A stretch of DNA of 64,000 bases. Origin: a phage. Where the stretch lies: sequence record PZ179883.1; one strand, written 5' to 3'. The notes under the pieces are model-generated. The model was not told the origin of the DNA, searched no databases, and saw only the letters and a program-made list of their open reading frames with translations. How positions within the stretch are numbered: position 1 is the stretch's first letter; each line of letters begins with the position of its first letter. Positions 12,598 to 64,000 of the stretch are shown here, in pieces. A program made the position numbers and the translations under genes.

Positions 12598-13601
12598 TAA
12601 CTTACCAATTCAATCCAAGCCGGACGAAGTACATCTTGTACCATTTTAACTAATTCCTTTTTAACCAAAGAAGGATTATCCGCTTGAGTTAGAGTAATAC
12701 CTTCACGAGAAGTTTCTTCCAAAATATCTTGAACAGTTAGTCCCATCACCTTTCCAAAATCCTTCGGACCAATTTCGCCAATTTTAGAAATAACGTTATT
12801 TACCCGGTTCAGTGTAACGTAACAAGCTAAAATTCCCACCAATTTGTTATCAGCTTCTGACAGTTCAACTTTAGCTTTAATAGGCTTATCAGACTTTTTC
12901 TTTTCGCTAAATTTAGAGTTCTTGCATTTAATAGCTACACGATTGCCATTAGGCATCCAAGAAGGATAACAAGGTTTCAATACATAACCTTCAGCGGTAA
13001 ATACTTCGCCTTTTGCTTCGGCATTCCAAACACATTTATTTGCATCAACTAATCCAGCATGGTCTACTGTAAAATTATAATCTTGAACGACAGAATCTAA
13101 ATCATTTGGCAATTTAATAAGCTCTTCAAATTTACCACGACCTAAAAGTGGAGCCATTTTAAATTTAAATGTATTACAGAATGATTCCATCATATAATCA
13201 TCGACATAAGTCACATCACCGCTTTCGGTAGTAACAATAATGTCAAATACATAAAAATCTTTATCACCATAATCGACATTCTTCTGAATGCCAGGTCCAG
13301 CGAATTCGCCGAAGACTTGATAAGATACAACTGCCGAAGTTTCCATAATATCTTGTACTGCTTTAATGGAATCAGCATAATTCTTTAAAATAATTTCATA
13401 CCCAAAGAAATCTTCAGCAGGAAGAATAGGACCAGTACGTTTAGCACAAGTTGCTTTATCGCGTTCAATAATCAGTGAGAAATTTGTGCCATGAATCTTT
13501 TCACGAGCTACCCATTCGCCGCCAGTCAATCCTAAACTGTAAAGTTTTTCAATGAATTTAGAATTGTAATGATTTTCAAGACTGCTATACTTTTTAAACA
13601 T
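12597..13601 (-). CDS. rnlB: RNA ligase 2
   Basis: 334 aa; KIHGTN nucleotidyltransferase motif; matches T4 Rnl2. Confidence 0.96.
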
Positions 13602-27392: not shown

Positions 27393-27445
27393 CCTCATGT
27401 TATGTCAGTAAGATTATTATAACACAACACGAGGGACTTGTAAAC
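27393..27445 (-). promoter_or_regulatory. early (sigma70-type) promoter with dyad symmetry, repeat copy 1
   Basis: Minus strand GTTTAC-17/18 nt-TATAAT; inverted repeat CCTCGTGTT/AACATGAGG flanks -10; 50 of 53 nt identical to 43043-43095. Confidence 0.6.
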
Positions 27446-35533: not shown

Positions 35534-35899
35534 TTAAATATCAAATTCGTTAAGAACTACATCAAAGATTGCTTCAAGATGCTCAGGTTTAGCTCTGTTA
35601 CTCAGAATATGACGAATCCAAGTTTTAACCAGAAGCTTGCGATTAACACCATTCCAGCAAGGATGAGTCCCTAAATCGCGTTGACGAAAATCATCATCTA
35701 AAGCGATTTTGAAGTTGGAACCTTCCATTGTGATTGAAACCGTGATGCCATTTTCAAATCGTATATAAACGTAGTTAGGAGTCATATACTGTTCAATTTC
35801 GCATACTGATCCATTTTGATGTTTCCAAAGGCAGATAGTATCAATAGAACCTGCAATACCGTTAGAAACATATTTACGTTCAAAGTTGATGTAGTTCAT
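35534..35899 (-). CDS. hypothetical protein (30.x)
   Basis: 121-aa ORF with GGAG RBS. Confidence 0.65.
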   Translation of the reverse strand: MNYINFERKYVSNGIAGSIDTICLWKHQNGSVCEIEQYMTPNYVYIRFENGITVSITMEGSNFKIALDDDFRQRDLGTHPCWNGVNRKLLVKTWIRHILSNRAKPEHLEAIFDVVLNEFDI

Positions 35900-35925
35900 T
35901 TTTATTCTCCGAGATGTTTAATTGC

Positions 35926-35965
35926 GGTACAGGTATATAATATCATATCCTGTACCAAAGTAAAC
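35926..35965 (-). promoter_or_regulatory. early promoter with dyad symmetry (family B, copy 1)
   Basis: Minus strand GTTTAC-17 nt-TATTAT; 8-bp inverted repeat GGTACAGG/CCTGTACC encloses -10. Confidence 0.55.
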
Positions 35966-35967
35966 AA

Positions 35968-36300
35968 TTATTTTACTACTTTCCAGTGCTGCATGTCAAG
36001 TTTGCCAACTTTTTTCATCTTCTCAATTAAGCGTTCTGCACGTTGGCGAGCTGTAACATAATACCATTCACCTAATTCATTTTGTTCAATTTTTCCAACG
36101 ATTACTGTATTCAATTCATAAATCCAACCAGTAAAGAAATTATGAACTTGAATTGTAAAGGTGAAATCTGTTCCCATACCTTCTGTTGTTTCTACTTCAA
36201 TAATATCACCTTCAACTGCCATTAAGAACCACATAGTTTCATCATATTTACCATTGAAACATTTAGTTTTAATTGTAGCGTTCAGATTAATCGTTTTCAT
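35968..36300 (-). CDS. hypothetical protein (30.x)
   Basis: 110-aa ORF. Confidence 0.65.
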   Translation of the reverse strand: MKTINLNATIKTKCFNGKYDETMWFLMAVEGDIIEVETTEGMGTDFTFTIQVHNFFTGWIYELNTVIVGKIEQNELGEWYYVTARQRAERLIEKMKKVGKLDMQHWKVVK

Positions 36301-36373
36301 TTTATTCTCCTTTGTTTGTGTAAGATAATACTATCACAAAGGAACCACACTGTAAACAACTTTGTGCAATCTT

Positions 36374-36405
36374 TGGAAAATAAAAAAGGACTCCCGAAGG
36401 AGTCC
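36374..36405 (-). terminator. rho-independent terminator (minus strand)
   Basis: AGGACUCC-UUCG-GGAGUCCU hairpin followed by UUUUUUAUUUU. Confidence 0.8.
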
Positions 36406-36410
36406 TCAAC

Positions 36411-38957: not shown

Positions 38958-39190
38958 AGTACGCCATACACCCTTTGTGCTTCAACTAATCCATCAAAAT
39001 CCAGTTTAAGATGTGTTATTTGGTCACCATCACCTGGATTCACAATTACTAATACTGAACGAGGAGTTTCGGTAATAACACGAACCGACGTTTCAGGAAA
39101 TCGTTCAGAAACCTTATTTACCAATTCTTGAGCAAATAGTTTAACTTTTTCTTGGAATTCTTTAACAGTAATTGGTTTTTCGCTTAGCAT
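38954..39190 (-). CDS. hypothetical protein (cd.x)
   Basis: 78-aa ORF. Confidence 0.6.
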   Translation of the reverse strand: MLSEKPITVKEFQEKVKLFAQELVNKVSERFPETSVRVITETPRSVLVIVNPGDGDQITHLKLDFDGLVEAQRVYGVL

Positions 39191-39711
39191 GTTGATCCTA
39201 GCTCCTTACTTTCAACGTTTTTAACTAATTTGACAGAAACTAATTCAGCATCTTGGGTAATCATTACCGGGCCTTCTTCATACTCTTCAAGATATTCTAG
39301 AGCTTTCTTTTTAGCTTCTTCCTTCGTATCAGTTTGAGCATAGATATAAAACATACAACCAGTAATACCTACTACTTTCCACTTAATTTCTTTATCAGTT
39401 TTAATTTCAAATTTACTGATAGAGTCATCTTTTTGAACTTCTTCGAAAAAATAATATTCTGACATATAAGTAATTGAAAATAGCGGGCTATCTTTATAAG
39501 ATTCGCCCATTACATCAACAGCTTTATACCAGCAATCGTCAATTTCGCGTTTAATGCTAATAACATTTTTCGCAGGATCTATTTTTACTTTAAATGAATT
39601 TTCCCCAATAAACTGAGCAATTCGTTTATTAGCCCCGCAAGTTTCATTAAAAATATCTTTATATCCAGCTTTAAAGCGATAAACCTTATCTTCTTCAAAC
39701 CATTCGCTCAT
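39184..39711 (-). CDS. hypothetical protein (cd.x)
   Basis: 175-aa ORF with GAGG RBS. Confidence 0.7.
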   Translation of the reverse strand: MSEWFEEDKVYRFKAGYKDIFNETCGANKRIAQFIGENSFKVKIDPAKNVISIKREIDDCWYKAVDVMGESYKDSPLFSITYMSEYYFFEEVQKDDSISKFEIKTDKEIKWKVVGITGCMFYIYAQTDTKEEAKKKALEYLEEYEEGPVMITQDAELVSVKLVKNVESKELGSTC

Positions 39712-39735
39712 TTCAATTTCCTCATTTGTTTTGGT

Positions 39736-39774
39736 AGAGCTATAATATCACAACTCTACCGTAAAGTAAACTAT
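39736..39774 (-). promoter_or_regulatory. early promoter with dyad symmetry (family B, copy 2)
   Basis: Minus strand GTTTAC-18 nt-TATTAT; inverted repeat GGTAGAG/CTCTACC encloses -10; loop shares TGATATTATA with copy 1. Confidence 0.55.
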
Positions 39775-43042: not shown

Positions 43043-43095
43043 CCTCATGTTATGTCAGTAAGTCTACTATAACACAACACGAGGGACTTGTAAAC
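43043..43095 (-). promoter_or_regulatory. early promoter with dyad symmetry, repeat copy 2
   Basis: Minus strand GTTTAC-17/18 nt-TATAGT; same inverted repeat as copy 1; 3' arm contains the alc SD. Confidence 0.6.
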
Positions 43096-55756: not shown

Positions 55757-55784
55757 ATGAACCTCGTTCAATTAGTGAGATTTC

Positions 55785-55819
55785 TATTATATACTATCTA
55801 AATCTTAAAGTAAACAGGT
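55785..55819 (-). promoter_or_regulatory. early promoter upstream of rnh
   Basis: Minus strand GTTTAC-16/18 nt-TATATAAT. Confidence 0.5.
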
Positions 55820-61575: not shown

Positions 61576-64000
61576 ATGGCTACTTTAAAACAAATACAAT
61601 TTAAAAGAAGCAAAACCGCAGGTCAACTTCCTGCTGCTTCAGTATTAGCCGAAGGTGAATTGGCTATTAATTTAAAAGATAAAACAATTTTCACAAAAGA
61701 TGACTCAGGCAATGTTATAGAATTAGGTTTAAAATATGGAGGAACAATTGATGGTTCTTTAACTGTTAATGGAAATATAATTGGAAATTTAACAGGTAAC
61801 GCTGCAACTGCAACGAAATTAAAAACAGCACGAAAAATTAATGGTATATCATTTGATGGGTCAAAAGATATCACGCTAACTCCATCTGACATAAATGTCA
61901 ATAGCACAACGTTTATAAAAAATAACGGCGAATTACCGGTTGATGCTAATTTAGATGAGTATGGGCCCATTGAAGAATATCTTGGTGTTTGGTCGAAATC
62001 TACTTCAACAAATGCGCAACCGGCAAATAAATTCCCAGAAGAAAATGCCGTAGGTGTACTAGAAGTATTTGTGGCCGGTCAATTTGCTGGTACTCAGAGA
62101 TATACTGTAAGATCTGGTAACGTATATGTTCGATCTTTGTCTGCTAAATGGAACGGTGTTAACGGTCCGTGGGGAGTTTGGCGTAATGTTCAAGCGTCAA
62201 CTCGTCCACTTTCACAAACGATTGACCTTGATAGCTTGGGAGAATTAGAACATTGTGGCTTATGGCGAAACAGTTCAAGCGCAATCGCATCATTTGATCG
62301 CCATTATCCAGAAGAAGGATCAGCCGCACAAGGATTTTTAGAAATATTTGAAGGTGGTTTATACGCGAGAACTCAGCGTTATACAACTAGATCTGGTGTT
62401 GTTTATACTCGCTGTCTTGCTGCTGCATGGGATGCTTCTGCGCCTAAATGGGGACCGTGGCAACAAGTCGGTAATGTCACACCGGCGACTTTCTATGACG
62501 GAGACCTGAATGATTTTAAAGCTCCTGGGTTATATAACATTTTAGGCACTGACGCAGTTACTAACCGTCCAGTTGCAGAAGGCGTTCCGGTTGAGATGAC
62601 CGGATTGCTTGAGGTTAAACAGCGTGCTTCCGGTGGCGCTATTTTCCAACGTTTCACTACCGCAGGAACGGGTGCAACTACGCGATCTCGCGTGTTTGAA
62701 CGTGCAATGACAAATAATATCTGGGGAAATTGGTACGAAGTATATACGTCCTATTCTATGCCAATTACTTTGGGTATGGGTGGTATTAAAACTCAATTAG
62801 CGGAGCTAGATTGGCAAACATTTGATTTTGTTCCTGGTAGTATGTTTAGCGTTCCTTTGAACAAAATAAAGAACATGCCAGCTAATATGGATTGGGGTAC
62901 GATTGACGGAAACTTAATTATGTTTTCTGTTGGTCCTAGCGAGCACACCAGCACAGGACGTACTGTTCAGGTTTGGCGTGGTACTGTATCCCAGACAAAC
63001 TACCGTTATTTTGTCGTTCGTGTATTCGGTAATTCAGGAAATAGAACTTGCACAGTTCGACGCGTTGTTCTTGAAGATGGTCGCCACAAATGGACAGCGC
63101 AACAAGATTTTAATGGTGCAGTTAACTTCGGTGCTCCTACCAATTTTAACTCTACTGTTAACCTTAATAACACTACCACATTTAAAACAGAAGTTAAATT
63201 CCGCTCATCTAATGCATTCCGTATGTATGGCGGAAAATTTGGTACAATTTTCCGTAATGATGGAGAGAGTCTTTATATTCTTTCTACCGACGAAGATGAC
63301 CAAGATGGAAACTTTAATACAAATAGACCTTTCCGTTATGAATTAAGAACTGGCGATGTTACTTTAGGTGGTGCTAGTGGTGCTAACGTTTTAAAATTAG
63401 AACGTAGTTCGCTTGCTGCCACCTTTGGTGGTGATGTTAACTTAAATAAAGGTACACTGACGTTTGAAGCTGGTCGCTTAAACTCCCGCGATTATTTTAA
63501 ATTTAACCATTGGGGTGATAGTAATAATGCTCGTGATAACATCATCCAGTTAGAAGATAGTCAAGGCGCCCATTTTTCCACTGAACGTACTTTAGCGACA
63601 GGTGCAATTAAAACTCGTTTCTTTGGCGAAACATTCACTGATGGTACATTATACCTAAATCAGATGAATAATAGCTCTGAACGATTCTCTATTAATAATT
63701 GGGGAAATTCAGAAGTTGGTCGCGCGGCAGTGATGGAAGTCAGTGATTCCAAAGGTTATCACTTCTATACGGAACGCAGGACAGATAACAGTTTGAATTT
63801 TGATGTTGCTGGCAATTTTACTGCGCATGGACCTTCCGGAATAACCATCAAAAACTCAACTGGTGCACGACATATCTGGTTTAGAGATGATAGCGATGCA
63901 GAAAAGGCTGCTATCTGGGCTACAGATGAGGGTATTTTACATATTCGCAATAATCATGGGGGTTCATTTAGTCATCACTTCCAGGGTGCAATGATTCTAG
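61576..64000 (+). CDS. 37: long tail fibre distal subunit, 5' part only (runs off window end)
   Basis: ATG 61576 after AAGAGGA RBS; open frame to the window end (808 codons); N-terminus [33 protein letters not shown] matches T4 gp37. Confidence 0.93.

Follow-up and report, generated by a model that had tools for sequence, protein, structure and literature searches.

What does a perfect inverted repeat do when it is built around the −10 element of a promoter? The question is raised by two short intergenic regions, here called site 1 and site 2, in a 64,000-nucleotide stretch of phage DNA (sequence record PZ179883.1), the whole of which is referred to as the window. A first-pass annotation had read the two regions as a second family of promoter hairpins, and had offered as candidate roles an RNA element in read-through transcripts and a DNA operator for a dimeric regulator overlapping the −10. 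The analysis presented here suggests that the stem probably does its work as RNA, in read-through transcripts, and not through classical termination or operator binding. The finding of a promoter inside a hairpin is real but already known, since the sites are T4's own promoters and the promoter/stem-loop architecture has been published. Its value as a discovery is therefore small, and what the analysis sharpens is the question of stem function in T-even phages.

Two T4 early promoters in the window

The window belongs to a Tequatrovirus and shares about 97% identity with T4-type phages across the cd–pseT–31–rIII region. Every base of both sites is identical in T4, where site 1 lies between genes 30.8 and 30.7 and site 2 between cd.3 and cd.2. 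The T4 GenBank record AF158101 names site 2 "early promoter Pe133295", and T4 coordinate 133295, the curated start, is the A within the 3′ arm CTCTACC, 7 nt past the −10 element; the record of phage fPS-90 also carries an early promoter annotated as predicted at this site. With regard to site 1, the early transcript of gene 30.7 has been characterised by primer extension and used as a RegB substrate, and RegB cleaves it at the GGAG within its Shine-Dalgarno sequence (PMC9409239, citing Truncaite et al. 2006). It is near certain that sites 1 and 2 are the T4 early promoters of genes 30.7 and cd.2, and that they belong to the PeSL class discussed below.

On the minus strand, site 1 (35965-35926) reads GTTTAC-TTT-GGTACAGG-ATATGATATTATATA-CCTGTACC, a letter-for-letter match to the earlier description, and site 2 (39771-39733) reads GTTTAC-TTTAC-GGTAGAG-TTGTGATATTATAG-CTCTACC. 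For site 2 the sequence given previously was correct, and its coordinates (39736-39774, minus strand) were too high by 3 nt on the ruler. The elements ascribed to the two sites, namely a GTTTAC −35, a TATTAT −10 inside a loop and a perfect flanking repeat, are seen at both of them (Table 1). The −35 and −10 are separated by 17 nt at site 1 and by 18 nt at site 2, each with an extended −10 (TGn), and the perfect inverted repeats on both sides of the −10 comprise 8 bp and 7 bp, respectively. The arms have 6 of 7 positions in common, differing in one pair (C-G at one site, G-C at the other), and site 1 has one additional G-C pair. By analogy with site 2 and Pe133295, transcription from site 1 is predicted to start at about 35930, inside the 3′ arm and 7 nt past the −10.

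Table 1. Positions of promoter, hairpin and neighbouring elements in the window.
Feature	Position	Strand	Sequence or remark
Site 1, −35 hexamer	35960..35965	−	GTTTAC; T4 early promoter of gene 30.7; identical in T4
Site 1, hairpin 5′ arm	35949..35956	−	GGTACAGG; within promoter spacer
Site 1, extended −10	35937..35945	−	TGA-TATTAT; in hairpin loop
Site 1, hairpin 3′ arm	35926..35933	−	CCTGTACC
Shine-Dalgarno of gene 30.7	35907..35910	−	GGAG; RegB endoribonuclease site known in T4
Canonical intrinsic terminator, between 30.9 and 30.8	36386..36407	−	GAGGACTCC-TTCG-GGAGTCC, then TTTTTTATTTT
Site 2, −35 hexamer	39766..39771	−	GTTTAC; T4 early promoter Pe133295, cd.3/cd.2 intergenic
Site 2, hairpin 5′ arm	39754..39760	−	GGTAGAG
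Site 2, extended −10	39742..39750	−	TGA-TATTAT; in loop
Site 2, hairpin 3′ arm	39733..39739	−	CTCTACC; start is the A at 39735
Shine-Dalgarno of downstream 175-aa ORF (39184-39711)	39720..39723	−	GAGG

The placement of the hairpins right after the stop of the upstream gene was also borne out. Upstream of site 1, the frame encoding gp30.8 (35968-36300; Pfam PF06019) stops at 35968, upstream of site 2 an open reading frame stops at 39774, and in each case the −35 hexamer begins 3 nt past the stop codon, preceded by an AT-rich sequence (aaataatt at site 1, aatttaata at site 2). Downstream, site 1 leads into GGAG-N7-ATG of gp30.7 (121 aa), with the GGAG 15 nt past the stem, and site 2 into GAGG-N8-ATG of a 175-aa ORF. 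The flanking Pfam matches are Phage_30_8 and Phage_T4_Gp30_7 for site 1, and DUF7355 (cd.3) and DUF7320 (cd.2) for site 2. The 175-aa ORF (39184-39711, minus strand), for which no Pfam match was found, overlaps the start of cd.2.

As sense-strand RNA, site 1 folds at −19.5 kcal/mol (z −5.4) and site 2 at −16.3 kcal/mol (z −4.1), and none of 200 shuffles was as stable in either case. The loop of site 1 is mostly paired too, leaving a loop of 4 nt; at site 2 the inner pairing involves three G·U pairs, is possible on the sense strand only and also leaves 4 nt. A search of Rfam over the sites gave no match at the gathering score and only sub-threshold chance hits (mir-126, E = 0.67, at site 1).

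An inverted copy of the site 2 loop exists in the 1985 T4 pseT clone X03007 (X03007.1, about 93-106), where the 14-nt loop is flipped between intact arms. The inversion (window 39740-39753) reverses the −10, and the T4 genome record flags a correction. It may represent a sequencing error, or else an inversion selected in the plasmid owing to the toxicity of a strong promoter. With asymmetric flanks used as the query, because arm, flipped loop and arm together equal the reverse complement of the native hairpin, the site 2 flip was absent from complete phage genomes and seen in this old clone record only, and no flip of the site 1 loop was found.

A published class of promoter stem-loops

Both sites share with the T4 early promoter (Pe) class the GTTTAC −35, the extended −10 TGn and the AT-rich upstream region; the promoter itself is identical, and the usual definition of that class does not include the hairpin. 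Promoter-early stem-loops (PeSLs), on the other hand, were defined in phages RB49 and phi1 and have a stem that lies mostly between −35 and −10 or overlaps the −10 (Arbiol et al. 2010, PMC2839356). The same article reports that neighbouring PeSL cassettes recombined into mini-circles, and that one RB49 stem-loop (PeSL211/210), the only one with a published assay for terminator activity, cut lacZ expression like rrnB T1 (Arbiol et al. 2010, PMC2839356). A later study extended PeSLs to T4/PST with the consensus TTTACW-N17-TAYWAT and variable stems, and linked them to indels (Comeau et al. 2014, PMC4122927).

Sites 1 and 2 have the sequence features of this class. Both are intergenic and lie just past the upstream stop after an AT-rich lead-in; both consist of GTTTAC-N17/18-TATTAT with TGn (sigma-70-like, 17±1 spacing) and a stable stem-loop overlapping the −10, with arms of 8 bp and 7 bp; both run into the Shine-Dalgarno sequence and ATG of a small gene downstream; and both coincide with indels or mosaic boundaries in a hyperplastic region. 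In the published cassettes, the −10 is one of the two places where the stem-loop most often lies, and there too a strong sigma-70-like early promoter is followed by the Shine-Dalgarno and ATG of a small gene without assigned function. The RB49 and phi1 stems, however, are typically a G-run paired with a C-run, whereas those of sites 1 and 2 are of mixed sequence.

Bracketing stems at other early promoters

The two sites had been taken for a family of their own, a view that does not hold, as they are members of the published PeSL class and similar hairpins occur at 9 of 23 T4 early promoters. This count comes from a scan of T4 for GTTTAC-N16-18-TATAAT-like sites, which yielded 23 sites on the early-gene strand, 9 of them with a perfect stem of 7 bp or more around the −10. 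The expectation from 500 shuffles in which both hexamers were kept is 0.92 ± 0.90 such stems, with a maximum of 5, and bracketing stems of at least 7 bp are found at 5.8% of random T4 positions. The T4 repeats measure 14, 14, 10, 8, 7, 7, 7, 7 and 7 bp, the rest being shorter, and the arm sequences bear no relation to one another (ipII, TCCTAGAATTGTGA; mobD.2, AGTTGACAAGATTA; upstream of dmd, GACAAGACTA; motB, GGGACCA; e.8/e.7, ATAGGCT; regB, TCCTCTT). A stem-agnostic scan of viral contigs, with GTTTACTTT and TGNTATTATA fixed and both arms free, retrieved 94 distinct promoters, 25 of which (27%) have bracketing stems of at least 7 bp with many different arms.

The T4 hairpins are asymmetric between strands. 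The sense strand is the more stable one in 9 of 10 strong hairpins, by 1.5-8.5 kcal/mol and also in z-score, and the bias towards the sense strand extends to all 23 promoters taken together (Wilcoxon p 0.0013). Of the promoter-like sites in T4, 10 of the 17 located behind a co-directional gene have a strong hairpin, as against none of the 6 that are intragenic or divergent. This contrast counts in favour of a role in read-through RNA, but it is confounded by coding constraint and by the possibility that some of these pattern-defined sites are not promoters.

Within the window, a fixed-spacing pattern search for more copies returned site 1 and one chance-level match only. Two near-identical early promoters of the form GTTTACAAGTCCCTCGTGTTGTGTTATA(G/A)T lie at 43046-43095 and 27396-27445 on the minus strand (T4 136336 and 123093); they have a strong hairpin of about −17.5 kcal/mol whose 3′ arm reaches the CATGAG just before the start codon, and this pair is probably what had been called the first family.

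Probable selection on the stem

The difference of one base pair between sites 1 and 2 had been put forward as evidence that pairing is preserved by selection rather than by recent copying. The swap itself is there, although a single swap is insufficient as proof of selection. Orthologues were therefore fetched through the flanking proteins and not through the stem, and pairs were read by hand, as the gaps that MAFFT placed in variants of sites 1 and 2 were out of structural register. The arms of site 1, GGTACAGG and CCTGTACC, are invariant in Mosigvirus and Dhakavirus, whereas the loop and both flanks diverge, and the stem is longer there (11-12 bp, TTGGTACAGGT/ACCTGTACCAA). The sole arm changes in stem-bearing alleles of the two sites are a C to T in the 3′ arm of site 1 (sequences L004 and L140) and an A to G in the 5′ arm of site 2 (GGTGGAG, in L021 and L046), each of which gives a G·U pair on the sense strand.

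Covariation was pooled over the ten strong T4 hairpin promoters, with every locus fetched, and the tabulation in relatives that had been proposed as a check did reveal further compensatory changes. In the motB promoter, GGGACCA/TGGTCCC of T4 corresponds to GGGAGCA/TGCTCCC in the RB69-like sequences L040 and L075, the orthologues of T4 7215, a double change from C-G to G-C. The alt.-2 promoter presents a compensatory double change from T-A to C-G, and in L127 a compensatory A-T to G-C is accompanied by an inward shift of the stem. Additionally, several predicted G·U pairs are Watson-Crick pairs in relatives, the loop variant of fPS-90 among them. One-sided changes in perfect arms gave G·U in 5 cases and A·C in none, counts that are small and not phylogenetically independent.

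The enrichment across the class, the additional compensatory changes and the wobble compatibility confined to the sense strand uphold the claim that pairing is held by selection and not by copying, and by these comparisons the stems seem to be selected for their structure. The invariance of the site 1 arms amid diverged flanks would also fit a sequence-specific constraint, and G·T pairing on the sense strand could favour single-stranded sense DNA and not RNA alone.

Turnover and mosaic boundaries

In RB69-like phages, the orthologous promoter downstream of cd.3 has a different hairpin, CACCA-cgga-TGGTG, located between −35 and −10, which corresponds to another published PeSL subclass. A second kind of turnover is seen in TuIa and AV114 (TuIa, AJ621579, 20-150; AV114, 560-675), which are missing gene 30.8 and instead carry a canonical terminator, GGGAGAC-TTCG-GTCTCCC-TTTT, about 45 nt upstream of the 30.7 promoter. 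The −35 and −10 of that promoter, annotated in the TuIa record, are intact, its 5′ arm reads CCTGTAGG and there is no stem. The loss of the stem fits with a hairpin that matters only where read-through RNA exists, and represents a single evolutionary event. The idea that the TuIa/AV114 promoter is a chimera of the T4-type 30.8 and 30.7 promoters found no support in the alignment.

Both promoters also lie at breaks in relatedness. Across site 1, identity is 89-93% for gp30.7 in every lineage but only 37-39% for gp30.8 in some (L006 and L011 to L014); the jump in divergence falls at the promoter when 35968-36300 and 35534-35899 (minus strand) are compared in the same phages, and DNA homology to many phages begins exactly at the −35. 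After the leader of site 2, the window has the 175-aa ORF, which is lacking in T4, where cd.2 follows on the same leader; RB69-like phages encode a homologue of 180-184 aa, and the indel junction lies at the ATG.

Read-through RNA as the probable site of action

Each site can be described as a strong sigma-70-type T4 early promoter built as a PeSL cassette, in the order of upstream stop, AT-rich stretch, GTTTAC −35, stem-loop with extended −10, Shine-Dalgarno sequence and ATG of a small gene. As the start lies inside the 3′ arm, the promoter's own transcript cannot form the hairpin; both arms would be present only in read-through RNA from the upstream gene, so that the hairpin most likely acts there, insulating neighbouring cistrons. 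We assign a probability of about 0.6 to this reading, in which an RNA hairpin fused to the promoter acts in read-through sense transcripts and the conserved cassette, at the DNA level, also marks mosaic and recombination boundaries between gene modules. The compensatory changes and the sense-strand bias make the RNA role the better of the two that had been suggested. A change in the 5′ arm such as GGTACAGG to CCATGAGG would break the site 1 stem while sparing the −35, TGn and −10.

As to the activity of such a hairpin, attenuation and stabilisation are both candidate roles. The stem might pause or partly terminate incoming polymerase. Like intrinsic terminators, the hairpins are stable stem-loops of nascent RNA at a gene boundary, but they differ in lacking the U-tract, which is missing at both sites and at all 10 strong T4 promoter hairpins. 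The 15 nt past the stem are GCAAUUAAACAUCUC at site 1 and AAAACAAAUGAGGAA at site 2, with no U-run, unlike the tail of the nearby canonical terminator (UUUUAUUUU), and neither site was retrieved in a terminator scan, which agrees with the earlier statement that these are not classical terminators. The lack of a U-tract at any of the ten strong hairpins makes efficient intrinsic termination doubtful and, together with the compensatory evolution and the better pairing of the sense strand, makes a role at the RNA level probable. 

Alternatively, or in addition, the hairpin could stabilise the upstream message by obstructing 3′ exonucleases. Intercistronic 3′ stabiliser hairpins are known in bacterial polycistronic mRNAs, and the promoter hairpins resemble them in being stable stem-loops between cistrons that lack a U-tract and in plausibly blocking 3′ exonucleases after a downstream endonucleolytic cut, such as that of RegB at the GGAG of 30.7; the T4 hairpins differ in being fused to a promoter. 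At site 1, the 3′ end to be protected could come from this RegB cut in the downstream leader.

The reading that survives best beside the RNA hairpin, though unlikely, is that the repeat serves as a recombination linker in DNA, supplying either a short stretch of homology or a target in the form of a cruciform or hairpin when small genes are shuffled as modules, with the RNA hairpin functionless. In favour of such a linker are the position of both sites at mosaic boundaries, the homology to many phages from the −35 onward and the published mini-circles formed between PeSL cassettes, and the flip in X03007 implies that DNA rearrangement or misreading can occur through the repeat. Homology-driven recombination, however, needs shared sequence, yet the arms vary between promoters; the predominance of G·U on the sense strand and the compensatory changes point to selection acting on pairing within a single strand; and the indel junction at site 2 is at the ATG, outside the hairpin.

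An operator over the −10, bound by a dimeric or structure-specific regulator, for instance in the shut-off of T4 early promoters, is very unlikely. In its favour, the −10 lies at the centre of the dyad symmetry, the arms of site 1 are invariant across genera and shared with site 2 at 6 of 7 positions, and reviews describe the mechanism of early promoter shut-off in T4 as not understood. Nevertheless, no common arm sequence exists among the T4 early promoters or the 94 related ones, only some 40% of early promoters possess a repeat around the −10, the RB69-like orthologue of site 2 has moved to a different hairpin between −35 and −10, the TuIa/AV114 allele has dispensed with the repeat, and strand asymmetry is unexpected under recognition of duplex DNA. 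These differing arms, the turnover, the loss and the asymmetry make a sequence-specific operator unlikely, and the proposal of a DNA operator for a dimeric regulator is therefore not sustained. Slightly less credence still is given to the notion that the repeats at some 40% of T4 early promoters constitute a structure-dependent silencing switch that would aid rapid early shut-off, with extrusion of a hairpin or cruciform, a structure-specific factor or a loop inversion as in the 1985 clone as conceivable mechanisms.

A further reading, rated lower again, is translational discrimination between transcript isoforms, in which read-through RNA would hide the ribosome binding site, as at T4 genes e and soc, whose late promoters are embedded in hairpins that sequester the ribosome binding site (PMC3014915). 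The geometry of a promoter inside a hairpin is the same as at gene e, in that RNA initiated upstream folds while promoter-proximal RNA lacks the 5′ arm, and the 3′ arm does lie over the Shine-Dalgarno sequence at the regB (T4 62797) and 30.8 promoters. At sites 1 and 2, in contrast, the Shine-Dalgarno sequence is outside the stem, the 3′ arms ending 15 nt (site 1) and 9 nt (site 2) before it, and folding predictions leave it accessible in either isoform. Its unpaired probability in read-through RNA is 0.5-0.65 for site 1, which does not fall below the value for the promoter's own transcript, and 0.56-0.83 for site 2, and overall the predicted accessibility in read-through RNA is similar to or above that in the promoter's own transcript. 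Masking of the gene e type was accordingly rejected for these two sites.

Least credible of all, and rejected here, is functionless chance complementarity in AT-rich promoter DNA, which could draw on the near-palindromic loops that follow from the TGnTATTATA consensus and on a third window site (55815) whose 6-bp repeat is not significant, but which is at odds with z-scores of −5.4 and −4.1, an approximately ten-fold enrichment over shuffles, arms conserved amid diverged flanks and the compensatory changes. That third site is the rnh promoter (55765-55815, minus strand), which has a divergent upstream neighbour and an AT-rich repeat, AGATTT/AAATCT, around its −10; it folds no better than shuffles (z +0.4).

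Masking of the gene e type may nonetheless occur at other promoters, such as those of regB and 30.8. In the 30.8 promoter region (window 36300-36360, minus strand), a repeat TCCTTTG...CAAAGGA places its 3′ arm over the Shine-Dalgarno sequence AAGGAG and could mask translation in read-through RNA. In the regB promoter (T4 62745-62797; 12745-12797 of the retrieved sequence L023), the 3′ arm AAGAGGAG is itself the regB Shine-Dalgarno sequence and a RegB target, so that read-through and promoter-proximal regB transcripts should differ in the accessibility of the ribosome binding site.
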